A stretch of 44,155 nucleotides of DNA from Acidobacteria bacterium 37-71-11 (GTDB lineage Bacteria; Acidobacteriota; Thermoanaerobaculia; Thermoanaerobaculales; Thermoanaerobaculaceae), in the NCBI GenBank assembly GCA_002279285.1, contig NCBR01000001.1, forward strand, positions 1 to 44,155, given 5' to 3'. This document shows positions 5,217-44,155 of the stretch, one piece after another. The stretch's first letter is position 1; each line of letters starts with the position of its first letter. The notes under the pieces are model-generated. The model was given only the letters and a program-made list of their open reading frames with translations, had not been told where the DNA came from and did no database searches. A program made the translations under genes and the position numbers.

Positions 5217-6404
5217 TCACCGGCCCGGGGTCTCCTTGTTGCCGAACTCGAACGGGCTGTTGCCGACGAACGCCTCGGCGCCGGGGCTGCCCTCGAGCGT
5301 GCTTTCCATCTCCTCGCGCGAGACGTCGGAGGTGGACTGGATCCCCTGAATGCGGAGCTTGAACTCGTCGGGGTTGGAGGCGCGCCGGATCGCCTCGTCG
5401 AGCGTGATCAGGCCCGACTTGTACAGGCTGTACAGCGACTGGTCGAACGTCTGCATCCCGTACTGCGAGGTGCCGGCGGCGATCGCGTCGCGGATCAGCT
5501 TCGTCTTCTCCTTCTGCTCGATGCACTCGCGGATGTAGGCGGTCGAGATCAGGACCTCCACGGCCGGCACGCGGCCGAGCCCGTCGGCGCGGGGCAGCAG
5601 CCGCATCGAGATGATCGCCCGGAGCACGACGGCGAGCTGGATGCGGATCTGCTTCTGCTGGTGCGGGGGGAACACCGAGATGATGCGGTTGATCGTCTCG
5701 GTGGCGTCCAGGGTGTGGAGGGTCGAGAGCACGAGGTGGCCGGTCTCGGCGGCGAGCAGCGACGTCTCGATCGTCTCGTAGTCGCGCATCTCGCCGACGA
5801 GGATCACGTCGGGGTCCTGGCGCAGACCCGAGCGCAGCGCCACCGAGAAGCTTCGCGTGTCGACCTCGACCTCGCGCTGGTTGATGATCGCCTTCTTGTC
5901 GCGGTGCAGGAACTCGATCGGGTCCTCGATGGTGACGATGTGGCAGTTGCGGGTGCTGTTGACGTGGTCGATCATCGCCGCGAGCGAGGTCGACTTCCCC
6001 GAGCCGGTGGTCCCGGTCACCAGGACGAGGCCGCGCTCCTCCTCGGCGATCTTCTCGAGAACGGGCGGAAGCAGCAGTTCCTTCACCGTGAGGATGCGCG
6101 CCGGGATCAACCGCAGCACCAGGCCGACCGACCCGCGCTGCTGGAAGATGTTGCAGCGGAACCGGCCGAGACCGGGGACCGAGTACGCGATGTCGATCTC
6201 GAGGAACTGCTTGAACTTCTCCTTCTGCTGCGTCGACATCATCGAGAACGCCATCGCGATGGTGTCCTCCTGCATCAGGCGCTTGAACTCCACCAGCGGC
6301 ACGAGCGTGCCATCCACCCGGATGAGCGGGTGGGCGCCGACCTTCAGGTGCACGTCCGACGCCTTCCGCTCCGTTGCCGCTTTGAGGATGTCGTTGATGT
6401 GCAT
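5217..6404 (-). CDS. pilT: Type IV pilus retraction ATPase, PilT/PilU family
   Basis: 395 aa. Motifs: '[18 protein letters not shown]', Walker A 'GTTGSGKST', '[12 protein letters not shown]', '[12 protein letters not shown]'. It has a ~45-aa C-terminal tail beyond a typical PilT. Confidence 0.9.
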
Positions 6405-6449
6405 GGCCGTGCCCCCTTGCCGCCGCTTGCGTCCTTGTGCTCTCGAGAT

Positions 6450-6478
6450 ACCCTAACCCGACGGGCCCAAGGTGTCAA
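6450..6478 (-). promoter_or_regulatory. Candidate sigma-70 promoter for pilT (TTGACA-N17-TAGGGT)
   Basis: The minus strand reads cTTGACAccttgggcccgtcgggtTAGGGTatc. The -35 is at 6473-6478 and the -10 at 6450-6455. This lies ~45 nt upstream of the pilT ATG, with AAGGGGG as the SD between. Motif match only. Confidence 0.4.
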
Positions 6479-6508: not shown

Positions 6509-7948
6509 TCACTCCAGCTTCAGCAGCCCCCGCAGCGCGTCCTTGTCCACGGCCCTGGCGAGCGCCTCCTGGGCGTCCACCTTGCCGTCCCGCACCAGCT
6601 CGGCGAGGGAGTCGTTCAAGGTGCGCATCCCAAGGCGCTTGGCGGTCTGCATGACGGTGGGGATCTGAAACGTTTTCCCTTCGCGGATGAGGTTGGCGAC
6701 CGCGGGGATCCCAAGCAAGATCTCGTAGGCCGCGACCCTTCCGCCGCCGATGCGCTTCAGGAGGATCTGCGCGATGACGCCCTTGAGCGACTCCGCAAGC
6801 ATCACGCGGATCTGCGCCTGGCGGTCGGGAGGGAACTGGTCCACCAGGCGCTCGACCGTGGAGACGGCGGTGGTCGTGTGCAATGTCGCGAACACGAGGT
6901 GTCCGGTCTCGGCGGTCTCGATCGCGATCGCCATCGTCTCGAGGTCGCGCAGCTCGCCGACGAGCACGATGTCGGGGTCCTCGCGCAGCGCTGCCCGCAG
7001 CGCGCGCTTGAACGACCCCGTGTGGGTGTACACCTCGCGCTGGTTGACCAGGCACTTCTTGTTCTCGTGGACGAACTCGATCGGGTCCTCGATCGTGATG
7101 ATGTGGTCGTTGCGCGTGTCGTTGATGAGGTCGATCATGGCGGCGAGGGTGGTCGACTTCCCCGACCCGGTCGGCCCGGTCACGAGCACCAGCCCCTTGT
7201 TGAGCGAGCACAGGCTGCGCACGCACTCGGGCAGGCCGAGGTTGTCGAAGCTCAGGATCTGGTTCGGAATCTGGCGGAAGACGGCGCCGGCGCCGTGGCG
7301 GTCGCGGAAGAGGTTGACCCGGAACCTCGCCACGCCGGGGATCTCGTATGCGAAGTCGGTGTCACTCTCCGCCCGGAACTCGGTGCGGTTGACCGCGGCG
7401 GCGACCTCGTCGCACATCAGGAGCACGTGCTCCGACGACAGCGGCGTCGAAAACTCCGGCAAGGCGGCCATGTCGCCGTGGAGGCGCATCAGCGGCGGCC
7501 GCGACGCCGTCAGGTGCAGGTCGGAGCCCCCCAGTTCGACAAGGCGGCGCAGCATCCGGTCGAGGGGCCGCTCGAGCGCCGGCGGCACCGGGGGCGGGAC
7601 CGCCGTCGGCTGTGGCGGCGGCGGGGCTGGTGCCGCTACGGGCGCCGGCTCGGCCGGCGCCAGGTCGAGGGTGGCGCGGGGCTCCCCGCCAGTGCGACTC
7701 GCGCGCAGCGTGAGGTGTGCGCCCGCGACCTCGATCACCGCGGTGACCTCCTCGCCCAGTTCCAACGCCACCCAGCGCGCCGGCCCGACCGCGGTTTCGA
7801 TCCAGCGCTCCAGCTCCTCGCTGGCAACGACGGCTTTCCCCGCCTGGAGCATCGCGCCGCCGGCCACCAGCACCGCGGGCTTGCCGCCGCGCAGGTCGAG
7901 CCGCTCGCCGCCCTTCTGGCGCGCGGCCTTGACGAGTCTCTCGATCAT
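6509..7948 (-). CDS. PilT-family ATPase paralog with ~125-aa N-terminal extension
   Basis: I chose the ATG at 7948 ([11 protein letters not shown]...), preceded by GGGGAGGTGA. This gives 479 aa. The C-terminal 350 aa are canonical PilT ('[19 protein letters not shown]', 'GPTGSGKST', '[12 protein letters not shown]', '[12 protein letters not shown]'). The track ORF 6509..9628 runs far upstream through sequence antisense to the yyaL-like gene, so that part is discarded. Confidence 0.88.
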
Positions 7949-8095
7949 GCCGGTATCGCTCACCTCCCCATGGTAGTCCGGCTCGGCGGGGTTCACCAGG
8001 GGATTATTTCGGCTTCGCCGTGCTTTCTGGGGAAGCGGAGGGACCGATGCACACTCCTGCTGCGACGGTGCTCGCCGGTGGGTAAGCTCTCGCCC

Positions 8096-10168
8096 ATGAC
8101 CCCGGCGCAACCTGCAAACCGCCTGATCGGCGAACCGAGTCCCTACCTCAGGCAGCACGCCCACAACCCGGTGGCGTGGTACCCGTGGGGCGAGGAAGCC
8201 CTGATCAGGGCGAGGGAGGAGGACAAGCCGATCTTCCTCTCGATCGGGTACGCGGCGTGCCACTGGTGCCACGTCATGGAACGGGAGTCGTTCGAGGACC
8301 CGGCGATCGCGGCGCTCCTCGCCGGGCACTTCATCGCGGTCAAAGTGGACCGCGAGGAGAGGCCCGACCTGGACGCCGTTTACATGAACGCGGTGCAGGC
8401 GATGACCGGCTCGGGGGGCTGGCCGCTCTCGGTGTTCCTCACCCCCGACCTGAAGCCGTTCCTCGGGGGCACCTACTTTCCTCCGGAGCGCAAATGGGGA
8501 ACGCCGTCGTTCCGGGAAGTCGTGGCAGCCGTCGCCGACGCCTGGCTGAACCGCCGCGACGAACTCGACGGTGCGGCCGCCACCCTCGCCGCCCAGTTGG
8601 CGAAGGACGAGGAGCCGGCCCCAGGCTCCCTCGACGCCGCGGCGGCCGCTGCCAGCGCGCTCGGAACGCTGGCGGCCCAGTACGATCGGCGCTGGGGCGG
8701 CTTCGGCGCGGCGCCGAAGTTCCCGACCCCGTCGCGGCTCTTCTTCTTGATTGACAAGGCGCGCCGCGACCCGGCGGCGCGCGATCTCCTTGCCGGGACG
8801 CTCGACGGGATGGCGGCCGGCGGCTTTTGCGACTGGCTCGGCGGTGGGTTCCACCGCTACTCCGTCGACGAGGCGTGGCGCATGCCCCACTTCGAGAAGA
8901 TGGTCTACGACAACGCGCTGCTCGCGCGGGCGTACGCCGAGGCCGGCCTCGCCCTCGACCGCGCCGAGTGGGTGGCGGTCGCGCGGGTGACCGCCGACTA
9001 CCTGGTGGGCGAGATGCGCGGGCCGGAGGGAGCTTTCCTCTCCTCCACCGACGCGGACAGCGAGGGGCATGAGGGCCGCTTCTTCACCTGGACGGCGGCG
9101 CAGGTGCGCGCGGCCCTCCCCCCCGGCGAGGCCGACCTGGTGATTGCGCTGTGCGGGCTCGGTGCCACGAGCAACCTCGAGGGGGATGCCCGCGTGCTGC
9201 GGCCCGCCCTGCCGCTGGCGGAGGTAGCGGCCGAGTTCCAGCTCACGACCGACCTCGCGGCCGGCCGGCTTGCCTCGGCGCGCGAGCGCCTGCTCGCGGC
9301 GCGGCGGCTGCGGGTGCCTCCGGCCACCGACGATAAGCGCCTCGCCGGCTGGAACGGGATGGCGGTGTGGTCGCTCGCCTACCTCGGGGCGGCCCTCCCC
9401 GAACCTCGCTACCTCCAGACAGCCAGGACGGCGGGCCATTTTCTTCTCGCACGCACCGCCCCCGACGGGCGCCTGGAGCGCTCGTGGCGCGACGGTGCGG
9501 TATCGGGCGTCGAGACGCTCGAGGACGTCGCCTGGGTCGTCGCGGCGTTCTCCCAACTCTTCGAGGCGGACGGTGAGGTGGCGTGGCTGACGGCCGCCAA
9601 GGCGCTCGTCGAGCGGCGGTTGCCGCACTACCAGACGCGGTCGGGGGCGCTCTGCGACACCCCCGACGACGGGCCGGATCTGCTCCTGCGCCCTCGAACC
9701 CCTGCCGACGGCGCCACCCCCTCGGCAGCCGGCGTCCTCGCCGCCGCGTTGCTCCGCCTCGCCGCGCTGACTGGGGAAGAACGCTTCCGGGTAGCCGGCG
9801 AGTGCGCCGTCGCGGCCGAGGCGGGGCTCCTGACACGGGTCCCGGCGGCGTGCCTGACGCTCGTGCAGGCGGCCGAGGGCGCCGTGCTGCCGGGAATGAC
9901 CCTCGTGGTGGTCGGCGACCCCAGTTGGGTCTCGACGCGCGAGCTGCTCGCCACCGCCTGGCGCCGCAAGCCTGCGCGCTGCGTCCTGGCGCCCTCGGGG
10001 CCGCTCCCGTTGCGGGCCGAGTCCCTGCGCGCCGTGCCCCTGTTCTCGGGCCGGGAGACTGTCCCTCCTGGTCGGGCCCGAGCCTACCTGTGCGAGGGTG
10101 GCGCCTGCCGCATTCCGGTCGAAGAGCCGGCGGCGCTCGCGCGCCTCCTCGACGCGGCCGGAAGTTGA
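8096..10168 (+). CDS. Thioredoxin-domain protein, DUF255 / YyaL (SSP411-like) family
   Basis: Start at ATG 8096 ([36 protein letters not shown]). The '[23 protein letters not shown]' thioredoxin-like CxxC region is followed by a long alpha/alpha-toroid-like region. The upstream part of track ORF 6437..10168 is antisense to the pilT paralog and is rejected. Confidence 0.85.
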
Positions 10169-10187
10169 CTCGAGATCGGGCGCCGGG

Positions 10188-11033
10188 CTACGCCGCCGGA
10201 GCCTTGCCCGGCAGCAGCCCGCGCAGGAACTGGTACAGGGCGAACGCGGCGAGCGCGAACGGGGCGAAGCCGAGGAACCCGAACACGGGCATCTCGTACA
10301 GCTTCACCGAGCCGAGGAACGGCACGGTGTAGCGCCAGCGTGCCGACGCCAGCATGTTCCAACTCTCCCAGAGCAGGCCGCACGCGAGCCCGGACGCGAG
10401 CAGCGCGGCCGGCCGGGAGCGCCGCCCCTGCTCGAGGTCGCCCAGCACCGAGGGCCGGCCCATCCGGTGGTTGACCGGGTCGAGCAGGAGCGGCCAGGCC
10501 AGCCACACGTCGGCCGCAAAATAGACGGACGGCCACAGCAGCGGGATCGCCGCCAGGATGGCGCCGACACTCACCAACGCCGCCGACAGCTCGCGCGGGA
10601 CCCTCCCGCCCGCGCCGCGGCCGGCGAGCCGGACCGCCGCCGGTTCGAGGAGTTGGCCGAGCAGGATGATCGCCGGTGTGATGGTGGCGAACGACCAGGC
10701 GTAGCCGAGGCCGCGCCACGGCCACGGCGGCAACCCCGAGTAGTGCCACCACAGCTCGGGCCCGGCGCTGGTCCAGAACCTGGGCCGGTCGTAAAGCTCG
10801 TAGAGCAGCCACGACGGGATGGAGACCGCGGCCATGAGCGCGAGTTCGAGCGGCGCGTTGCGCAGCCACGAGCGGCCGCGCCTTGCCAGCAGTCCGTCCA
10901 CCGCCACGATGAAACCCGTCCAGCACAGCGGCGTGAGGTTCTGCGCGGCCGGCGTGACGCGCGCCGCCGCGAGCCCCATGCTGGCCGCGATGAGGGCGAC
11001 GCCGGGCCAGAACCACCACGCCGGACGGGCCAT
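10188..11033 (-). CDS. Hypothetical polytopic membrane protein
   Basis: ATG at 11033 (MARPAWWFWPGVALIAASMGL...), 281 aa. There are several hydrophobic Trp/Leu/Ala-rich segments. I recognise no family motif. Confidence 0.55.
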   Translation of the reverse strand: MARPAWWFWPGVALIAASMGLAAARVTPAAQNLTPLCWTGFIVAVDGLLARRGRSWLRNAPLELALMAAVSIPSWLLYELYDRPRFWTSAGPELWWHYSGLPPWPWRGLGYAWSFATITPAIILLGQLLEPAAVRLAGRGAGGRVPRELSAALVSVGAILAAIPLLWPSVYFAADVWLAWPLLLDPVNHRMGRPSVLGDLEQGRRSRPAALLASGLACGLLWESWNMLASARWRYTVPFLGSVKLYEMPVFGFLGFAPFALAAFALYQFLRGLLPGKAPAA

Positions 11034-26510: not shown

Positions 26511-27848
26511 TCATTCCGGCTTCCACTTGTCGAGCAGGACGGGCTCCCCGACGTTGGTCCCGGCCAGCGGTGCCACCGCGAGGTCCCAGTCCGTGGCGCC
26601 CACGGCGTAGCGGGGCACGCGGAAGAACAGCAGCTTGCCGTCAGCCGACGGCACCGCCTCGAGCAACGGGCGCCGCTGCGCGCCGGGCAGCCTGACCTCC
26701 TGCACCACGCCGCCAGCGAAGAGGAGTTGGCGGTCCGCGCGGCAGAAGTACAGGCGGTTGTTGGCGCCGACTCGCGGCGCGTACTCCGGACCCATTGTGT
26801 TGATGCGCGGCTCGAGCGGCTGTCCCGGTTTACCCTCCGTCGAAAGCCAGAGGTCGGAGCTGCCCTGGTCGTACACCGTCCACACCAACGCCTTGAGCTG
26901 ACGGCCGAAGCGCTGGGCGTCCCCCACGCTCGGCCCGCCCGGCACGTCCACCTTCACGAGCGCCGCCCACGGGGCCTTCGTGCCCGCCCTCTGGCTCGAA
27001 TAGAGCCCCCGCACACCACCGCTGGGCTGCATCACCTCGACCAAGCATGCGGTCTCGCCGCCGTCGATCCAGGTCAACCGTGCGTTGACATCCGGGGCGA
27101 GGCCGGGGAACTCGACGGGCTGAGGTTCGGTCCAGGCGCCGTTCTCCCACGCCGTCCGGTACGGGCGGTACCCGCCGACCGCCCACGGCGCCAGCGCGCC
27201 TTTGGCGTCGCGCATCCCGGGCCGCACCGCCCCGACCGGAGGCGCGTCTTTGCCCGAGGTCGGGACCCCAGGGAGCAGGCCGGCCGCAAAGTACACGGCC
27301 TTGCCCTCCGCGGCCGGGAGCGGCGTCATCTCGAGGCCGGCCGAGTTGACCAGTTTCGGGTCATCGGGGGTGAACGCATCGGCGGGGATCGCCTGCAGCG
27401 ACCGCGGCAGGAAGCGCATCTGGTAAACGGAGAAGAGGTACACCTCGGCCGCGTCGGCAAGCAGCAGCTTGGTGCCGACCATCGCGGTGGTGCCGGGCAT
27501 CGGGTTGACCGCGACCTCCTGCCCGACCCGGAAATCGTCGAGGCCGGACGCGCGCTCCCCCGCCACGCACACCGTGTCGGCGGTGACCCTGATCCGCACC
27601 TTGACATCCTTGTCGAGCTTCGGCACGGGCTTGCCCTCGCGCCGCATCGCGGCCTGCATGGTCTCAGGGAGGCCCTCGTTGATCTCCAACTCCCAGACGC
27701 CCTTGTCGGCCGCCTCCCGGATCGCGGCGATCCGGCCCAAAATCAAGCTGTCCGGCTGCGGCACCGGTGTGGTCGTGTCCTGCATGTTGCAGCCCGCGAC
27801 CACGAGTACGGCGAGCCCCAGCACGGCGAAGTTGCGGTTGATGGTCAT
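26511..27848 (-). CDS. Lipoprotein with PD40/TolB-like beta-propeller-type repeats
   Basis: A signal peptide with lipobox is MTINRNFAVLGLAVLVVAG|C. Recurrent motifs of the form 'DGKLLFF', 'NRLYFCRADRQLLFAGG' and 'GKAVYFAAG' resemble PD40 blades. It lies 15 nt downstream of the nucleoside transporter gene. Confidence 0.6.
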   Translation of the reverse strand: MTINRNFAVLGLAVLVVAGCNMQDTTTPVPQPDSLILGRIAAIREAADKGVWELEINEGLPETMQAAMRREGKPVPKLDKDVKVRIRVTADTVCVAGERASGLDDFRVGQEVAVNPMPGTTAMVGTKLLLADAAEVYLFSVYQMRFLPRSLQAIPADAFTPDDPKLVNSAGLEMTPLPAAEGKAVYFAAGLLPGVPTSGKDAPPVGAVRPGMRDAKGALAPWAVGGYRPYRTAWENGAWTEPQPVEFPGLAPDVNARLTWIDGGETACLVEVMQPSGGVRGLYSSQRAGTKAPWAALVKVDVPGGPSVGDAQRFGRQLKALVWTVYDQGSSDLWLSTEGKPGQPLEPRINTMGPEYAPRVGANNRLYFCRADRQLLFAGGVVQEVRLPGAQRRPLLEAVPSADGKLLFFRVPRYAVGATDWDLAVAPLAGTNVGEPVLLDKWKPE

Positions 27849-27863
27849 CGTTCCATCCCCTTC

Positions 27864-29111
27864 CTACAGCAAGATACCGGCGATACAAGCGCTCACGAAG
27901 CTCGTAAGCGCCCCACCGATGAGGGCACGTACTCCGAGGCGCGCGAGGTCGTGCTGGCGGTTGGGCGCAAGCCCGCCGATACCGCCGATCTGGATGCCGA
28001 TCGAGCCGATGTTGGCGAAGCCGCACAGCGCGTACGTTGCGAGCACCGATGCGCGCTGCGAAAGCACCGGCACCGAGCCGGCCGCCTTCGCGCCACTGGC
28101 GATGAGCTTCGCGTTGTCGAGCAGCGTCTTCATGTCGAGGTAAGCGATGAACTCGTTGAGGACGGTCTTCTTGCCGAGGAGCACCCCGACGGTGCCACAC
28201 TCGCTCCAGGGGATTCCGATCAACCAAGCCACCGGAGCCAGGAGCCGCGCGAAGAACCACTCGAGCGAGAGCTGCGGCATCCCGGCCAGCCCGCCAACCC
28301 ACCCGAGTAGCGCGTTGACCAGCGCCAGCAGCGCCAGGAACGCGATCAGCATCGCCCCGACGTTCAGGCACAACCTCATCCCGTCGGACGCCCCGGAAGC
28401 GGCGGCGTCCACGCCGTTGACCCACGGCCGCTCCACGTGGGCACGGACCGTTCCCGCGGTCTCGGGCTCGCCATCCTCGGGGAAGAGCAGCTTCGCGATC
28501 GCGAGCGCGCCCGGGGCTGCCATCACCGACGCGGCGATCAGGTGGACGGCGGGAATCCCGAAGGAGACGTAAACCACGAGCACGCCGGCTGCGATGTGCG
28601 CGAAGCCCCCGACCATGATCGCGTGCAACTCCGACTGCGTGAGCGTCGCGAGGTACGGGCGGATCATCAGCGGCGCCTCGGTCTGGCCGACGAAGACGTT
28701 GGAGTCGCACAACGATTCGGCGCCGGAGGTGCGCATCGTCTTCATCATCAGCCAGGCGATCCCCTGTACCACCCGCTGCAAGATCCCGTAGTAGTAGAGG
28801 ATCGTCGTGGCGGCGGAGACGAAGATGATCGTAGGCAGCACCTTAAACGCGAAGAAGTGGTCGGTGTACTTCTCGCCGAACACGAAGCTTGCGCCGGCGT
28901 CGGAGAAATCGAGGAACTTCCTCGCGAGGTTGCCGAGGAAGCTGAACGCATCGTAACCCCACGGCGTCCTAATCACGATCACGGCCAGCGCGGCCTGCAG
29001 GCCAAGCCCCCACAGCACCGTCCGCCAGCGCACGCCCTTGCGGTTGTTCGAAAGCAGGTAGGCGACACCGACAAAGACCACGAGGCCGAGCGCCGAGATC
29101 GCACGTTCCAT
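27864..29111 (-). CDS. Concentrative nucleoside transporter, NupC/NupG (CNT) family
   Basis: I prefer the ATG at 29111 (MERAISALGLVVF...), preceded by AGGAGGG; the track starts at GTG 29138. Typical CNT segments are 'RWRTVLWGLGLQ', 'GASFVFG', 'LPTIIFVSA', 'ESLCDSNVFVGQTEAPL' and 'GFANIGSIGIQIGG'. Confidence 0.88.
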   Translation of the reverse strand: MERAISALGLVVFVGVAYLLSNNRKGVRWRTVLWGLGLQAALAVIVIRTPWGYDAFSFLGNLARKFLDFSDAGASFVFGEKYTDHFFAFKVLPTIIFVSAATTILYYYGILQRVVQGIAWLMMKTMRTSGAESLCDSNVFVGQTEAPLMIRPYLATLTQSELHAIMVGGFAHIAAGVLVVYVSFGIPAVHLIAASVMAAPGALAIAKLLFPEDGEPETAGTVRAHVERPWVNGVDAAASGASDGMRLCLNVGAMLIAFLALLALVNALLGWVGGLAGMPQLSLEWFFARLLAPVAWLIGIPWSECGTVGVLLGKKTVLNEFIAYLDMKTLLDNAKLIASGAKAAGSVPVLSQRASVLATYALCGFANIGSIGIQIGGIGGLAPNRQHDLARLGVRALIGGALTSFVSACIAGILL

Positions 29112-29154
29112 CAACCCTCCTGCCACTGCGGACGACACCGCGTATCATACCTCC

Positions 29155-38228: not shown

Positions 38229-39065
38229 TCAGCCGCGCACGAAGTCGGGGCGCGGGAGCCCCGGGATCAACCCGGCTTCGTGCGCGCGGCGGTAGAACAG
38301 CTCCACCCCCCGCCGCCCGCGCTCGCCGTAGTCGAGGGTCGCCTCGTTGACGTACATCCCGACGAAGCGGTCGCCCTTGGCGTGGTCCAGACCCCGGCCG
38401 AACGACAGCGCGTGCGCGAGCGCCTCCTCGCGATGCTCGAGCGCCCAGCGGATGGAGGCCTCGAGCACCCCGGCGACCCGGCGCATCAACGGCTCGCCGA
38501 GGTCGCGGCGGATCGCGTTGCCGCCCAGCGGCAGCGGTGTCCCGGTCTCGCCGGTCCACCACTCCCCGAGGTCCGCGACCTTGGCGAACCCCTCGTCGGC
38601 GAACGTGAGCTGGCCCTCGTGGATGACCACGCCCGCGTCCGCATCCCCGCGGCGCACCACGTCCATCACCGCGTCGAACGGGACATCGGTGCAACGCGCG
38701 GCGGGCTGCCAGAGCTGCAGGGCGAGACGGGCCGAGGTGAGCGCGCCCGGCGTCGCCACGGTCATGCCCGCGAGATCGCCGCGCGCCAGCGGCCGGCGGG
38801 CCAGGACCACCGGGCCGTAGCCGTCGCCGAGCGAGGCGCCGGAGTTGAGCAGCGCGTAGCGTTCGTCGAGGTGCGCGAACGCGTGCAGCGAGACCGCCGT
38901 CACCTCGTACAGCCCCTCCTTCGCCTTCTGGTTCAGGGTCTCGATGTCGGCAAGCGTTTCGGCGAAGCGCAGCCCCTCGGCCCCCACCTTGCCGTGCACC
39001 ACGGCGTAGTGCATGAAGGCGTCGTCGGCGTCCGGCGAGTGCGCGATGCGGATCAGTCGTGACAT
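38229..39065 (-). CDS. MqnA/MqnD-family protein (futalosine-pathway type periplasmic-binding-protein fold)
   Basis: 278 aa. The N-terminal 'IAHSPDADDAFMHYA' and the overall pattern are typical of the VitK2_biosynth (MqnA/MqnD) family. The sequence alone does not say which reaction it performs. Confidence 0.65.
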   Translation of the reverse strand: MSRLIRIAHSPDADDAFMHYAVVHGKVGAEGLRFAETLADIETLNQKAKEGLYEVTAVSLHAFAHLDERYALLNSGASLGDGYGPVVLARRPLARGDLAGMTVATPGALTSARLALQLWQPAARCTDVPFDAVMDVVRRGDADAGVVIHEGQLTFADEGFAKVADLGEWWTGETGTPLPLGGNAIRRDLGEPLMRRVAGVLEASIRWALEHREEALAHALSFGRGLDHAKGDRFVGMYVNEATLDYGERGRRGVELFYRRAHEAGLIPGLPRPDFVRG

Positions 39066-39119: not shown

Positions 39120-39500
39120 TCAACCCTGCGCGGGCGGCACGCCCCCGGCGCCGCCATCCGCCTGGGACTCCATGTGAAAGCGCTGCAGGACGTGGTGGAT
39201 GACCGGAGCGAGCATGACGCCGGCGAGCACGAGGAAGACGACCCCGGCGAACAGGGCGTAGAGTCCGGCAAGCCACTTCCCTGCGGTCGTGCGCAGCGGG
39301 TCCACCGGACCCATCCCGCCGAGCAGCATCGCCGCGTTGAGGAACGAGTCCGGCCACGGCAGGCCCTCGACCCAGTGGTAGATCGCCATGCCGAGACCGA
39401 GCGTTCCAACGGCCAGCGGCAGGAGCGCGAACACGCCGGAGACCATGTGCCGGGCCAGGTGCCACGGCCGGCGGTGGAAATGAGTTTCGTTCGGCTTCAT
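39120..39500 (-). CDS. Small 2-TM ion-channel-like pore protein with a non-canonical filter
   Basis: The ATG at 39500 is preceded by GAGGAGG. 126 aa. The layout is TM1, a pore-helix-like 'WPDSFLNAAMLLGGMGPVDP', then TM2, which resembles Ion_trans_2 K+ channel pores. The TxGYGD filter is replaced by LGGMGP. Confidence 0.5.
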   Translation of the reverse strand: MKPNETHFHRRPWHLARHMVSGVFALLPLAVGTLGLGMAIYHWVEGLPWPDSFLNAAMLLGGMGPVDPLRTTAGKWLAGLYALFAGVVFLVLAGVMLAPVIHHVLQRFHMESQADGGAGGVPPAQG

Positions 39501-39615: not shown

Positions 39616-40845
39616 CTATTCCCACAGCAGGTCCAACGCCCGGGCCCGCGCCCGCAACCGCGCGTGGAGACCGGCAAGGGCGGTCCAGACCTCGTCCGCC
39701 ATCCGGCGGCCGGTGGGGTAGAGCCCCCAGGTCAGGCGCGCCGGCGCGCCGAAGTAGACCCCGTCCACGAACACGCTCGCGAGGGCCTCGCGACCGGCGA
39801 GCAGCGGAGGCAGCATCAGCCCGACTGACGACACTCCCGGCCCGACGTACGGCAGGTGCCCGAGGTCGCGCACCTTGAAGTTGCACTCCCGAGCCGCGCG
39901 GCTGAGCCGCTCCGAGCGAGTCCGGTCCGGCCTCGCGACGTCATCGAACGCGACGACCTCTTTGCTGTGCGGCCCGTACGCCGCCCCGGCCCTCGCAACC
40001 GTTTCGCTCCAACCCCGGCGGCGGGCGGCCGCGAGCGCCCGCGCCCACATCACGCCGAGGCCCAGCCCCGCGATCCGCTCCGGCGCCAGGCCGTCGCCCA
40101 CAAAGCGTCCCTGCCGGTCCGAGTTGCTGTCGAAGAACACCGACTGGGCGAGCCACTCCACCGGGTCGGAGACGATGAGGAACAGCCCTGCGAACGCCGC
40201 TCGTCGGGCCTCGGCGAGGAAGCCGCGCAGGATCGCGCGGTTGGGCGCCAGCTGGACCATGCGAACCTCGCCCCGGGTGCCGAGCGGCGGCACGCCGTCC
40301 GTCGCGGCGAACAGGAACGCGTCGCACCGCTCGAAGATCTCGCGGGGCCCGGCCGCCCGCACGAGGGGCAGCTCGCCCCGCCCCTGCCAGCGCGCGATCG
40401 AGCCCAGCTCGAGCAGCCAGCGCTGCTGGTTCGCCGCATCGACGTCATGGATCACCAGCTCGCGGATGCCCGACACGCGGCTCGGCGCCGCCGCAAGAAC
40501 CGTCGCGGCGACCCCGCCGACCCTGCCCAGGCCGGCGAGGCCGACCGAAAACCCGCGGGGGTCGGGCGGCGCGGCGAGCCTGGCCAGGTCACGCGCCACG
40601 CCCGGAGCTGCGGTCAGGTAGGTCCAGTGCGGCTGCCGCGCCGGCCCGTGTCTCAGCGTTTCGAGCCGGAGCGCCGGCCGGTACCACGGCGGCGCGACCC
40701 ACGGCTCGCGCCGCGGGTCCCCCTCGCGCGGCGAGAGAATCAACTCCGGGTCGGGCCGCGAGCGACGGCGCGTGCCCCAGCCAAGCCGCTCAGCGGTTGC
40801 AGGGTCGCCCACCAGGGCCGCGCGCCCCTGGCCGAACAGTCTCAC
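39616..40845 (-). CDS. Divergent LDH/MDH-like Rossmann-fold protein with ~105-aa N-terminal extension
   Basis: The GTG at 40845 overlaps the upstream stop as GTGA and is preceded by GGAGGGA. 409 aa. Motifs collinear with lactate/malate dehydrogenases are 'GLAGLGRVGGVAA', 'ELVIHDVD', 'GTRGEVRMVQLAPN', 'LIVSDPVE', 'GVMWARA' and 'YGPHSKEVV'. Confidence 0.6.
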   Translation of the reverse strand: MRLFGQGRAALVGDPATAERLGWGTRRRSRPDPELILSPREGDPRREPWVAPPWYRPALRLETLRHGPARQPHWTYLTAAPGVARDLARLAAPPDPRGFSVGLAGLGRVGGVAATVLAAAPSRVSGIRELVIHDVDAANQQRWLLELGSIARWQGRGELPLVRAAGPREIFERCDAFLFAATDGVPPLGTRGEVRMVQLAPNRAILRGFLAEARRAAFAGLFLIVSDPVEWLAQSVFFDSNSDRQGRFVGDGLAPERIAGLGLGVMWARALAAARRRGWSETVARAGAAYGPHSKEVVAFDDVARPDRTRSERLSRAARECNFKVRDLGHLPYVGPGVSSVGLMLPPLLAGREALASVFVDGVYFGAPARLTWGLYPTGRRMADEVWTALAGLHARLRARARALDLLWE

Positions 40846-43800
40846 CGCTCCCTCCAGCGTTCGCGGCCTGCGGCGTGCGTCTGGGGGTGCAACCGCGCCA
40901 GCGCCTCGATGTCCTCGGCGACCAGGTCGCTCGGGAAGCGGTCGCGCGGCGGCAGGAACCCTTGCGGCATCGGCGGGCACCGCGGCGTACGCACCACCGC
41001 ACCCAGGTCCTGCACCGCCAGCAGCCGTCCCTCGCGCTCGCGGAACGTCTCCTCGAGCGCCAGGAGAACGGCATGCGCATGGGCGAGCGCCAGGCGCGAA
41101 AAGTCGAACGCGTCGGAGCCCGAGAGCCCAAGGTGCCGCGGGTGGCGGTAGGGCAGGCAATCGTTGAGCGAGGGCAGCAGCGACCCGGTCTCCAGCGGGT
41201 CGCGCCCGACGATGCTCCATCCACCGACGTACGGGGCCGTCGCGCTCTCCCGCAGCACGCCGCGCCACCCCGGTACCACCGCGCCGCAGCGGTGCGGAAT
41301 CCCGCGCAGATCGAGCGTCGTCCGCACCGAGGCGTTGGTCACGCCGATCAACACCTCGCGCACGGGCAGGCCGGCCGCCTGCGCCGCATCGTTGACCTGA
41401 AGCACCGCTTCCGCGCTGTCGAGGAACGGCGCGAGCACAATGGCGTTGCGGCCAAGCTCGCGCGCAACCGCGAGCTGCAGCCCGAGGGAGGGGCTGCCGA
41501 CGCGGGGGGCGGTGCCCCCCTCCGAGCCCCGCCAGGTCAGGAGGCGCTCGAGGTCGATCGCGACGGTTGGGTACTCCCCGACGATGTCGCGCGAAAACTG
41601 CCGCCCGAGGCCGAGCGTCACCCAGCGGCGCCGGGCCGGCTGATCACCCAGGACCCCCTGCGCCCACTGCACGACCTGCCGCTTGAGCTGCTCCTCGTGC
41701 AGGTGGAGCAGTGCGTCGCCCGGAGCCAACGCCGCGAAGAACCCGGCGAGCGCCGCGCGGCCGGAGGCGAGCGCCCGCCGTACGGCGGGAGCGCCGGTGT
41801 ACGGGGGCTGCAGGACGTTCTCGATGTCCCAGAGCAGCACCAGCGGGTGCTCGAGGCGGAGGACGGCGAGGCCGCCGCCCGGCTGCGCGCCTCGCTGCGG
41901 GACGGCCGCCCCGAGAGGCCTAAGGGCGTCTGCGAGCGCCCCGCCGTCGCGCCCGTCGAGCGGCACCAGGGCGAAGAGCAGGCCCGCGTCGAGCCAGCGT
42001 CCGAGCACGTCGGAGAGCAACCGCTGCAGCGACCCGCCATCGCCCCCTGCCCCGGGGGGCCCGACGGTCTCGACGAGCGCCCCATCGCCGACCAGTCGCC
42101 CGTCGCTGACCGGCAGCGGACCTCCCCCTCCCGGGACGGTTGGCAACGAAGCCGCCGCGCCCGTGCGCCAACGGATCGAAGCGGCGGGGCCCTGCTCCGC
42201 GTCCGGGCTCTTCAGCTCGCACACCGTGACATCGTGGTGGCGGCCGGCGGCACGGCACTCGACACGGTCATCCGGAAGCGGCACCTGTTCCTTGTAGGCC
42301 GGGTAGTTGACGTAGAGCCGCCGCTCCAGCAGCGTCCGCGCGACGAGCGGGTGGCACAGCGCGTCCAGGTCGCCGCGGCGGTCGAGAGCGGCCCGCAACG
42401 CCGTCGAGGACACCGCCCGCACCTGGTCCGGTACCGGCACGACCGTGACCCCGCCGCGGAAGCCGCCGATCCTATCCCGCCAGCCCTCGGGGCCGGCCCC
42501 ATCCCGCACCACGACGAGGTGGGGGATCTCCCAGATCTCGCCTTCGGGCTTCGCATAGGCGCTGGCGCCGGACAGCACGTCGGAGCCGACGACGATCAGC
42601 AGCTCGCGCCGGCCGAACGCGCGCCGGAGCTGGCGCACGCCGGAAACCCGCCGCGCCAGGTTCACCGGCGGTCGGAACGGCGCCAGGTACGCGTCGGGCA
42701 TGTCGGCGAGCGCCATCCACGCGAGATCCTCCCGGAGCTGGCGCGGCAGCGCGTGCTTCCGCCACGAGTAGTCGTCCATCTGCACGACCGCTTCGGCGGC
42801 GTGCTCGAGAGCCCGGGCCACCACGGCCCGGTGCGCGCTCGTGAACGGGTCGAACGTGCCGGGGATGAACGCCACGGCGGGGCGCTCGGGGAAGCGCAGC
42901 GCCGGGTGCAACGATGCGATCGCGCGGTCGAGGCGGTTGAGTGCCGACCCGACGAGGAAGAAGCGCACCCGATCCCCGCCCCGGTGAGTGGTCAGCGTCA
43001 GGAGCTTCTTGCTCGCCAGGAGGAGGAACGCGCGCAGCCGACCGTCGTCGGGGCGCTCCGAGAGCCGCTCGAGCATCATCGCGATCTGCGCGAACCCCTC
43101 GACGGCCGTCGATGACCGCGACTCCGCGAGCGAGCCGAGCAGCATCCCGGTGAGACGCCGCAGCACCCCGCCCTGGAGGGTGGCGGCGTCGAGGGCGGTC
43201 AGGAGCCAGCCGGCGGTTTGCAGCAGGAGGCGCTGCAGCGGCTCGTTTCCCCGCCGCACGTTGCCCTCGATGTCGTCCAGCGCTTCGAGGAACTCCTGCT
43301 CGGGAAGACTCGCGAGCACCGAGGCGAGAAAGCGCGGGATGTAGCGCGTTACCGCCTCGACGTCGAGCTCCAGGGAGCGCAGCAGCTCGACCATGACGTC
43401 GTTGCGCTGCGGCACGGTCAGGAGGGGCAACAACGCCAGCAGGGAACGGCCGGCGTGGAACCGCGTGCCTTCGACGCGGCTCACCTTCAACAGGTTCGCG
43501 AAGTGCGAGGCGACCTCGTTGGCGAAGTACGAGCCGGGGTCGCGCTCCTCGGCGCGCCGCGCGACCGCGGAAAAGACGAGGAAGTCGCAGTTCACTTTCT
43601 TCTCGACCCAGTCCACGCGGCTCTTGAGGTTGCGCAGGAGGACCTCGCGAACGGGGTCGCGCCCCTCGAGCCTCAGCCTCCGGCTGAGCTCGGCAACGTG
43701 CGGCAGCGCGCACGCCTCGCCCATCTCCTCGAGCAGGAAGAGCTCGGCCACCAAGAAATCGCCGCCGCGATGACCGAGGGCCTCGACGCGACCGGCGAGG

Positions 43801-44132
43801 CCGGCGAGCGCCTCCGGCTGTCCGGCGGCGCCGCGCGCGAGCGCGAGCAGCAGCCGCCACGCCATCAACCGGGTCGCGGCGACCGGGTGCTCGCACCACG
43901 CCGCCGCGAACGCCACGAGGCCGGGCCGGTCCTCGACCGGAACGTGCTCCAAGCAAATCTCCAGCGACTCGCAGACATACAGGCCGACGAGCGGCCGGCC
44001 GTCGCGGAGGCGGCCCTCGAAGTTCGCCTTGACCCGCTCCCACGCCTGGCGTCGGAGGTCGGGCTCGGCGCGGCGGAGGAGGCGCCGCAGCACGATCGGC
44101 ACGGCGTACAGCACCCGCTCGGTCGCCGCCAT
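40842..44132 (-). CDS. Large multidomain protein with a central NadD/NMNAT/CitC-type nucleotidyltransferase domain
   Basis: 1096 aa. The composition is protein-like throughout and it is the longest frame. Residues ~418-600 carry 'AFIPGTFDPFTSAH' ((H/T)xGH-type motif) and 'VSSTALRAAL' (ISSTxxR-type motif) about 145 aa apart. The N-terminal ~410 aa are Leu/Ala/Arg-rich and helical. The C-terminal ~480 aa are unassigned. Confidence 0.7.
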   Translation of the reverse strand: MAATERVLYAVPIVLRRLLRRAEPDLRRQAWERVKANFEGRLRDGRPLVGLYVCESLEICLEHVPVEDRPGLVAFAAAWCEHPVAATRLMAWRLLLALARGAAGQPEALAGLAGRVEALGHRGGDFLVAELFLLEEMGEACALPHVAELSRRLRLEGRDPVREVLLRNLKSRVDWVEKKVNCDFLVFSAVARRAEERDPGSYFANEVASHFANLLKVSRVEGTRFHAGRSLLALLPLLTVPQRNDVMVELLRSLELDVEAVTRYIPRFLASVLASLPEQEFLEALDDIEGNVRRGNEPLQRLLLQTAGWLLTALDAATLQGGVLRRLTGMLLGSLAESRSSTAVEGFAQIAMMLERLSERPDDGRLRAFLLLASKKLLTLTTHRGGDRVRFFLVGSALNRLDRAIASLHPALRFPERPAVAFIPGTFDPFTSAHRAVVARALEHAAEAVVQMDDYSWRKHALPRQLREDLAWMALADMPDAYLAPFRPPVNLARRVSGVRQLRRAFGRRELLIVVGSDVLSGASAYAKPEGEIWEIPHLVVVRDGAGPEGWRDRIGGFRGGVTVVPVPDQVRAVSSTALRAALDRRGDLDALCHPLVARTLLERRLYVNYPAYKEQVPLPDDRVECRAAGRHHDVTVCELKSPDAEQGPAASIRWRTGAAASLPTVPGGGGPLPVSDGRLVGDGALVETVGPPGAGGDGGSLQRLLSDVLGRWLDAGLLFALVPLDGRDGGALADALRPLGAAVPQRGAQPGGGLAVLRLEHPLVLLWDIENVLQPPYTGAPAVRRALASGRAALAGFFAALAPGDALLHLHEEQLKRQVVQWAQGVLGDQPARRRWVTLGLGRQFSRDIVGEYPTVAIDLERLLTWRGSEGGTAPRVGSPSLGLQLAVARELGRNAIVLAPFLDSAEAVLQVNDAAQAAGLPVREVLIGVTNASVRTTLDLRGIPHRCGAVVPGWRGVLRESATAPYVGGWSIVGRDPLETGSLLPSLNDCLPYRHPRHLGLSGSDAFDFSRLALAHAHAVLLALEETFREREGRLLAVQDLGAVVRTPRCPPMPQGFLPPRDRFPSDLVAEDIEALARLHPQTHAAGRERWRER

Positions 44133-44155
44133 GTCCTCTTCGGGGTTCGCCTTCG

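Follow-up and report, generated by a model that had tools for sequence, protein, structure and literature searches.

Which reaction is catalyzed by a giant bacterial protein of about 1,600 amino acids (aa) whose gene overlaps that of a divergent dehydrogenase-like protein? This question is raised by one end of a 44,155-nucleotide (nt) stretch of DNA from Acidobacteria bacterium 37-71-11 (assembly GCA_002279285.1, contig NCBR01000001.1, positions 1 to 44,155; hereafter referred to as the window), in which the two genes are located next to each other on the minus strand. No model, name or paper covers the giant protein, and its domains point to pyridine-nucleotide chemistry or related dinucleotide chemistry. 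Pfam, NCBIfam and PADLOC contain no model for its architecture, and a full-text literature search for the family did not return a description. A preliminary description of the locus, prepared from the sequence alone, had likewise recognized no described family or system, and profile searches now assign the giant protein to none. Results presented here show that the gene pair is conserved across phyla, probably as an enzyme module of strictly anaerobic bacteria, and that the giant protein is a pairing of an HD domain with a NadD-type nucleotidyltransferase (NTase), greatly elaborated by additional regions.

Extent of the gene pair and its translational coupling

The partner gene, encoding a 409-aa divergent protein of the lactate dehydrogenase/malate dehydrogenase (LDH/MDH) fold, extends from position 39616 to 40845 on the minus strand. 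Its GTG start codon (40843-40845) overlaps the TGA stop codon of the giant gene (40842-40844), forming a GTGA junction, and a Shine-Dalgarno-like GGAGGGA (40849-40855, minus strand) is placed within the last codons of the giant gene, its GGAGG being separated from the GTG by 5 nt. The overlap and the GGAGGGA had been listed in the preliminary description, and they were confirmed on the minus strand. Furthermore, a TGGAG upstream of the partner start is conserved among the Acidobacterial loci. GTG 40845 is the true start of the partner gene, because the GC content at codon position 3 (GC3) in the same frame amounts to 0.91 downstream of this codon vs 0.53 upstream of it, the start residue is common to orthologues with 56-88% identity, and the 37-sequence alignment of the partner begins at this residue.

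Only the 3' two thirds of the giant gene are contained in the window (40842-44155, minus strand; GC3 0.91), where they encode residues 489-1591 of the corresponding database protein, designated P0001, before the gene exits at the window end. P0001 comprises 1,591 aa and is 100% identical across all 1096 aa of the open reading frame (ORF) that had originally been read as a complete gene. Since the protein matches in this way and the frame is unbroken to the window edge at 44153, the ATG at 44132 encodes an internal methionine, and about 495 N-terminal residues, the HD domain included, are located outside the window. The 1096-aa ORF is therefore an artefact of the window edge, and the HD domain, being encoded beyond that edge, is missing from the preliminary description even though it is the best-conserved domain of the protein. 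Both reading frames of the pair are intact and show strong GC3.

Distribution and linkage of the two genes

Scanning one genome per species revealed at least 280 confirmed stretches encoding a relative of the giant protein, and the best 80 loci were taken further. These loci belong to Acidobacteriota, to many Clostridia (Bacillota) and to Atribacterota, and carriers include the gut genera Oscillibacter, Dysosmobacter and Faecousia as well as Lachnospiraceae. A HMMER search of 1.84 billion representative proteins returned 135 clusters at E<=1e-30. Full-length members of the giant family always comprise 1,540-1,740 aa, and among 150 representatives none was found fused to the partner. The apparently longer protein P0025 was considered as a fusion candidate; it looks like a frameshifted read-through.

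The partner was detected by tblastn directly downstream of the giant gene and on the same strand in 71 of the 77 loci with enough downstream DNA, and four of four further loci also carry it. This same-strand adjacency persists at 23-30% identity of the giant protein and in three phyla. The most common junction is a 4-nt RTGA overlap (17 of 57 junctions), nearly all others lie between -29 and +60 nt, and in the distant clade comprising P0104 to P0109 (26-33% identity) the overlap of the partner with the giant gene amounts to 29-62 nt. Translation of the two genes is coupled, and the arrangement that had been noted at a single locus holds across genomes.

Nucleotidyltransferase domain of the giant protein

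Along P0001, an HD domain is followed by about 570 aa of HEAT-like helices, an NTase of the NadD/phosphopantetheine adenylyltransferase (PPAT) type, an alpha/beta region and a type-I phosphoribosyltransferase (PRT) fold. The NTase, bearing the HIGH-type signature, corresponds to residues 910-1105 (42303-42890, minus strand) and was assigned by Pfam and PDB profile matches. The Pfam family PF01467 (CTP_transf_like) matches P0001 with 24.2 bits vs a cut-off of 21 and all 26 members that were compared, and profile matches in the PDB are PPAT (E 3.5e-10), NMNAT (E 1e-6) and, across the full domain, NadD (E 5e-5). The (T/H)xxH ATP-binding motif PGTFDPFTSAH (residues 919-929; 42831-42863, minus strand) aligns residue for residue with PGTFDPLTNGH of PPAT; its 'TSAH', initially considered an odd variant, is the standard TxxH form of PPAT. 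The second signature, VSSTALR (residues 1069-1075; 42393-42413, minus strand), aligns with VSGTMVR of PPAT. No variation within the family was seen at P919, G920, T921, D923, P924, H929, S1071 and R1075, and the NadD-like small-molecule motifs P..K...R and G.D are retained. The HIGH-type core recognized in the preliminary description is thereby confirmed.

All equivalog cut-offs were missed by this domain, namely those for NadD (NF000842/TIGR00482, 25.8 bits vs 167 and 22 vs 112) and the one for PPAT (TIGR01510, 22.7 bits vs 103.3). As far as sequence similarity indicates, the placement of the NTase is one at the level of the family and not at the level of the substrate.

HD domain and HEAT-like region

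The HD domain (P0001 residues ~159-265) represents the best-conserved part of the giant protein. Its predicted ligands H162, H195-D196, H214, H237 and D258 are the same in all 26 members compared, whose identities fall to 23%. According to a review of the superfamily, a two-metal site, such as that of YqeK and of the HD-GYP phosphodiesterases, is diagnosed by an extended H..HD..H..H..D signature (PMC8177086). Judged from its residue pattern, the HD domain of P0001 fits this six-residue signature and is a predicted two-metal domain. PF01966 scores 16 bits for P0001 vs a cut-off of 22 and 27.6 bits, above this cut-off, for P0104, and 13 of the 26 members match at E<=0.5. Other sequence matches of the region are weak and generic, comprising the HD-GYP entry 4mcw (E 0.07), TIGR00295, a "DVU_1551 NTP transferase" model and HDIG. 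Identity with YqeK (COG1713) was considered and rejected, as 12 HD regions scanned against NCBIfam at E<=1 matched no YqeK model.

The HEAT-like helical repeats occupy residues ~330-900, of which the part from ~489 to 900 is visible in the window (42918-44153, minus strand). Pfam HEAT models match 14 of the 26 family members (best E 6.6e-4), and a PDB profile search of this region returned the HEAT protein CAND2 (E 0.005). The flank of 410 aa that had been noted upstream of the NTase is indeed helical; it constitutes only part of the repeat region of about 570 aa.

C-terminal region of the giant protein

The C-terminal 480 aa, previously reported to lack any recognizable motif, adopt a confidently predicted fold. 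An AlphaFold2 model of residues 1105-1591, computed from 34 aligned sequences, reached a predicted local distance difference test score (pLDDT) of 88.5 and a predicted template modelling score of 0.90. In a Foldseek search of the PDB, this model matched type-I PRTs only (OPRT, APRT and XPRT; E 6e-5 to 1e-3, probability 1.0), with about 150-160 aligned columns and 10-15% sequence identity. Foldseek gives no matched residues; the boundary of the fold was set from the secondary structure of the model: the PRT-like fold and a C-terminal helical tail cover residues ~1336-1591 (40845-41612, minus strand). The Pfam family Pribosyltran remained under its cut-off (12.9 vs 26.3).

Between NTase and PRT fold, an alpha/beta region was delimited from the modelled secondary structure (residues ~1106-1335; 41613-42302, minus strand). 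Its strand and helix order is beta-beta-beta-beta-alpha-beta-alpha-beta, which would be compatible with a GNAT fold, so that the region may be GNAT-like. Acetyltransf_1 matched weakly in 3 of 30 members (E>=0.008), the acetyl-CoA loop is not conserved, and a PDB profile search of these residues returned a chance-level match only.

The loop which binds phosphoribosyl pyrophosphate (PRPP) in type-I PRTs differs between the lineages. In Bacillota and Atribacterota, its position is occupied by the canonical PVILVDDLLHKGYRI, or by VILVDDLLHKGYR in Bacillota, and 'VILVDD' is present in all members from these two phyla. The clade of P0104 to P0109 possesses PILADLFSLSGxTL at this position, and all Acidobacterial members, that of the window included, possess NA(I/L)(V/L)LAPFLDSAEAV, from which the acidic pair is gone. 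In the orthologue alignment, the degenerate position of the window reads NAIVLAPFLDSAEAV (residues 1391-1405; 41403-41447, minus strand); its core VLAPFLDSAEA has neither the acidic pair nor the TGxT phosphate loop and does not qualify as a PRPP loop. Among the C-terminal 480 aa, Gly and Pro make up nearly all of the invariant positions, the remaining ones being Gln, Ser, Glu, Leu and a single Lys (K1109) at the NTase boundary. The PRT-like domain of the Acidobacterial lineage, which has lost the PRPP loop, is most likely a ligand-binding or structural module and not a catalyst. In Bacillota the PRT domain may still be catalytic, together with a flavoprotein encoded next to the pair.

The dehydrogenase-like partner protein

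Assignment of the partner to the LDH/MDH fold is based on profile, fold search and alignment. The profile of the 409-aa partner family matched the L-LDH structure 4q3n (E 1.7e-8). The AlphaFold2 model of the partner (pLDDT 86) was matched by Foldseek to full-length L-LDHs (E 9e-14, template modelling score 0.76 for the LDH of S. aureus) over about 335-339 columns; this fold search was used for the C-terminal domain, where sequence alignment to LDH provided short marginal matches only. Family cut-offs were missed by the partner itself (Pfam Ldh_1_N 13.5 vs 27; NCBIfam L-LDH 16.3 vs 303), and one Clostridial orthologue barely exceeds the one of Pfam (30.1 vs 27).

The dinucleotide-binding loop GLGRVGG (aa 105-111; 40513-40533, minus strand) is followed by Asp134, which ends beta2. 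Both the loop and Asp134 are invariant, as are Arg195, aligned to the arginine of GETR, Arg269 and His293. By collinearity, Arg269 and His293 presumably correspond to Arg171 and His195 of LDH; their spacing of 24 residues is the same as in LDH numbering. The segment comprising SDPV, GVMWAR and GPH (39967-40167, minus strand) represents an altered LDH active site, in which Asp227 occupies the position of Asn140 and Met266 that of Asp168. These two residues, and with them the S-D-P, M, R and H of the segment, are invariant in Acidobacterial and Clostridial orthologues. Moreover, the substrate loop is longer than in LDH and contains an invariant VPP. The exchange of Asn for Asp and the loss of the catalytic Asp had both been noted before, and they are confirmed here. 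As neither replacement varies between Acidobacteria and Clostridia, the remodelled active site is a conserved design and not the result of decay.

Furthermore, the partner carries an N-terminal extension of about 98-100 aa (40552-40845, minus strand), which is conserved in the Acidobacterial set, where W23, R26, G42, E47, W49 and W74 are invariant. No known family matched this extension.

Comparison with known systems

Among the closest parallels to the giant protein is NadD-YqeK of mycoplasmas and other Firmicutes, the one pairing of HD with NadD described so far, encoded as a fusion or in clusters, in which the HD protein hydrolyses analogues of nicotinic acid adenine dinucleotide (NaAD) and diadenosine tetraphosphate (PMC9426524). 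In both systems, a HIGH-type adenylyltransferase similar to NadD is paired with an HD hydrolase showing the extended two-metal motif, and in NadD-YqeK the hydrolase cleaves dinucleotides made by the transferase. However, the domain order is reversed in the giant protein, where the HD domain is N-terminal, about 570 aa of HEAT-like repeats are inserted between HD and NTase, and about 480 C-terminal residues carrying the PRT fold are added. In addition, its HD domain has no YqeK-family match, its NTase scores far under the NadD equivalog cut-off, and an LDH-like partner is present.

With CoaD/PPAT and NMNAT/NadD the giant protein shares the motifs PGTFDPxTxxH and (I/V)S(S/G)TxxR and the PF01467 fold family, whereas its NTase is one domain within a 1,591-aa protein and scores below the TIGR01510 and NadD cut-offs. 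Similarly, the partner resembles L-LDH and MDH in possessing both fold domains, the GxGxxG loop with its Asp, and predicted equivalents of Arg109, Arg171 and His195; it differs from them in the replacements of Asn140 by Asp and of Asp168 by Met, in the longer substrate loop and in about 100 additional aa at the N-terminus. The core fold is shared with type-I PRTs such as APRT, OPRT and XPRT, and Bacillota orthologues retain the hydrophobic strand and, after it, the DD loop, unlike the window protein with its VLAPFLDSAEA. A further parallel is NadM-Nudix with NadV, in which NMNAT is fused to an ADP-ribose pyrophosphatase and accompanied by a nicotinamide PRT. This triad of adenylyltransferase, nucleotide pyrophosphohydrolase and phosphoribosyltransferase, which serves NAD salvage, recalls the giant protein. 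In the latter, however, the hydrolase is an HD domain and not a Nudix domain, the PRT is of type I and degenerate vs type II in NadV, and all parts are joined in a single polypeptide that includes a HEAT scaffold.

All domains can be placed in known superfamilies, and the equivalog tests for NadD, PPAT, YqeK, L-LDH and a catalytic PRT all failed. The database names "nicotinic acid mononucleotide adenylyltransferase" and "phosphopantetheine adenylyltransferase" are over-annotations. Identification of the substrate could expose a new step in the synthesis, turnover or proofreading of an NAD-like cofactor, or a nucleotide signal tied to amino-acid fermentation.

Proposed function and alternative explanations

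Based on the domain composition, a role of the module in the synthesis or modification of an NAD-like nucleotide is plausible. More specifically, and with a confidence that stays somewhat short of even, the giant protein is proposed to be a scaffolded enzyme that would make (by the NTase) and cleave (by the HD domain) an adenylylated small molecule of the NAD type, in complex with an NAD-binding oxidoreductase. The NTase would transfer AMP from ATP onto a phosphate-bearing small molecule, yielding an NAD- or NaAD-like dinucleotide, and the two-metal HD domain would cleave the same or a related pyrophosphate-linked nucleotide for turnover or proofreading, as in NadD-YqeK. The partner would be produced in a ratio of about 1:1 with the giant protein, would dock on it, probably on the HEAT scaffold, and would use or sense a pyridine dinucleotide while acting on a 2-oxo or 2-hydroxy acid. 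This proposal is supported by the HD and NTase domains, both of which keep all catalytic signatures across the family, and by recurring NAD(P)-linked neighbours of the pair, namely genes for an NADPH-dependent flavin mononucleotide (FMN) reductase (FMN_red), for glutamate dehydrogenase (GDH) and for NuoE/F-like proteins.

Several observations weigh against it. The NTase scores far under the NadD and PPAT equivalog cut-offs, so that its acceptor could be nicotinamide mononucleotide, phosphopantetheine, FMN, a phospho-alcohol or even a carboxylate. For the HD domain, the best matches were weak ones to generic HDIG and HD-GYP models, and YqeK was not matched. Roles for the HEAT, GNAT-like and PRT-like regions and for the N-terminal extension of the partner are left unexplained by the proposal, and the 'DD' loop specific to Bacillota, along with the FMN reductase, hints at additional reactions that it does not cover. 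Moreover, no partner was found near the giant gene at six loci (L006, L020, L044, L071, L072 and L077) despite at least 3.3 kb of downstream DNA. These six loci would also be expected if the two genes were mere neighbours or decayed and had no functional link. That explanation is considered extremely improbable in view of the same-strand adjacency down to 23-30% identity in three phyla (71 of 77 loci), the conserved overlap of stop and start codons, the intact frames with strong GC3 and the invariance of catalytic residues.

Alternatively, the module could be devoted to synthesizing a non-canonical dinucleotide cofactor. In this case, the PRT would make a base-ribose-5'-phosphate from PRPP, the NTase would adenylylate this product, the HD domain would trim or recycle it, and the LDH-like protein, together with the FMN reductase of Bacillota, would be the user or maturase. 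Such an enzyme would account for a PRT fold and a NadD-like NTase in one chain, for the canonical 'VILVDD' PRPP loop of all Bacillota and Atribacterota members, for the additional FMN_red gene in the same lineages and for the invariant, non-LDH active site of the partner. However, the PRPP loop has been lost in the whole Acidobacterial clade although the gene pair was kept there, the invariant residues of the C-terminal 480 aa are limited to Gly, Pro, Gln, Ser, Glu, Leu and K1109, and Pribosyltran stays below its cut-off, leaving this alternative unlikely, though worth consideration. Slightly less likely still is a writer/eraser function in the style of GlnD/GlnE or SpoT. Here, the NTase would adenylylate and the HD domain de-adenylylate a protein (GDH or the partner), or both would make and break a signalling nucleotide, with the PRT-like or GNAT-like module sensing PRPP, (p)ppGpp or an acyl-CoA. 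GlnD and Rel/SpoT are likewise composed of an HD domain, a nucleotidyltransferase and C-terminal non-catalytic domains, and the C-terminal domains of the giant protein look non-catalytic as well; the PRT fold is a known binder of (p)ppGpp and PRPP, a ppGpp-bound XPRT is among the Foldseek matches, and a HEAT scaffold is suited to protein-protein binding. Holophagae, one locus of Thermoanaerobaculia and Anaerovoracaceae-like Clostridia have a GDH gene beside the two genes or between them, but only 12 of 86 loci carry GDH close to the pair. Furthermore, HIGH-type NTases are known only from small-molecule or tRNA-linked chemistry and are not known to nucleotidylate proteins, and the NTase studied here retains the NadD-like small-molecule motifs, which argues against a writer/eraser.

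GDH as a neighbour, together with the carboxylate-binding Arg predicted for the partner, would also be in line with a ligase resembling CitC. In this case, the NTase would form an acyl-adenylate and the GNAT-like domain would transfer its acyl moiety to an acceptor thiol or amine, the acid being the 2-oxo or 2-hydroxy acid of the partner, e.g., one derived from glutamate via GDH. Citrate_ly_lig matched weakly in 2 of 26 members (E 0.019), and an NTase beside a possibly GNAT-like region echoes the combination of GNAT and NTase in CitC. On the other hand, Citrate_ly_lig remained below its cut-off (15.1 bits vs 20.9), the domain order differs from that of CitC with its N-terminal GNAT domain, and the best full-domain similarities are those to NadD and NMNAT. 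The GNAT assignment is itself tentative, being derived from the model, with an acetyl-CoA loop that is not conserved, and a ligase would assign no role to the invariant HD domain; a function of this kind is therefore regarded as improbable. Beyond the scaffolded NAD-type enzyme proposed above, it may be speculated, with low confidence, that the module forms a 'factory plus user' of a novel adenylylated cofactor or signal in anaerobes. The NTase, in Bacillota together with the PRT, would build this molecule and the HD domain would destroy it, the partner would be the first dehydrogenase-type enzyme dedicated to it, and the whole would be tied to glutamate and NAD(P)H redox metabolism.

Neighbouring genes and genomic context

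In 45 Bacillota and Atribacterota loci, the pair is followed by a third gene encoding about 356 aa (e.g., L045:13358-14428, plus strand). Its product consists of an N-terminal domain of about 165 aa with no assigned family, a Cys-rich stretch and, at the C-terminus, a domain of the NADPH-dependent FMN reductase family (PF03358, E 1e-20). This gene co-occurs with the intact 'DD' loop of the PRT region and is absent from the Acidobacterial loci. Neither FMN-reductase nor GDH genes are present within the window.

Among the loci with a nearby GDH gene, the gene is located between the giant gene and the partner gene in Geothrix and in a Holophagae-like genome (L001:15378-16751 and L089:13193-14566), two genes downstream in a relative of the window with 78% identity (L003:16842-18188), and immediately upstream in eight Clostridial loci (L023, L024, L028, L031, L033, L037, L057 and L078). 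In three Acidobacterial loci, genes similar to NuoE and NuoF lie no further than 8 kb from the pair (L087:14166-20218, L088:25-4183 and L089:20550-20767). Genes of this type are known from electron-bifurcating complexes of hydrogenase or formate dehydrogenase, and a Rex-like gene adjoins them in L089.

Directly after the partner gene, the window contains a small hydrophobic ORF of about 126 aa (39120-39500, minus strand; GC3 0.89), which is a candidate member of the same unit and had no Pfam family match. A 120-aa counterpart comes after the partner in L003, and L007 has a similar ORF (both in cluster c51). An MqnA-like gene of the futalosine pathway for menaquinone is located downstream of the pair in the window (38229-39065, minus strand) and in a relative with 54% identity (L088:15496-16335), and UbiD-family genes precede the giant gene in L003, L087 and L004/L005. 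Proximity of the MqnA-like and UbiD genes may reflect synteny within the lineage rather than a functional link.

Rfam searches detected no riboswitch or leader upstream of the pair in 11 Clostridial loci or in the window. An anti-phage defence system was considered and rejected, as neither protein had a PADLOC match at E<=1 and the context is one of housekeeping genes. The window represents an ordinary chromosome region encoding TrpRS, AlaRS, PurH, CTP synthase, KdsA/B, a sigma-54 two-component pair and a permease in addition to the MqnA-like protein. Elsewhere in it, a 450-aa ORF (26511-27863, minus strand) that looks strongly coding by its GC3 of 0.91 but has no Pfam match adjoins a nucleoside transporter gene (27864-29144). 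Moreover, an open frame of 1,264 codons from stop to stop (6509-10303, minus strand) encodes a T2SSE secretion ATPase domain that is confined to the last 350 residues; its first 900 codons had no Pfam match and an ambiguous GC3 of 0.82. A second T2SSE ATPase gene is located at 5217-6452.

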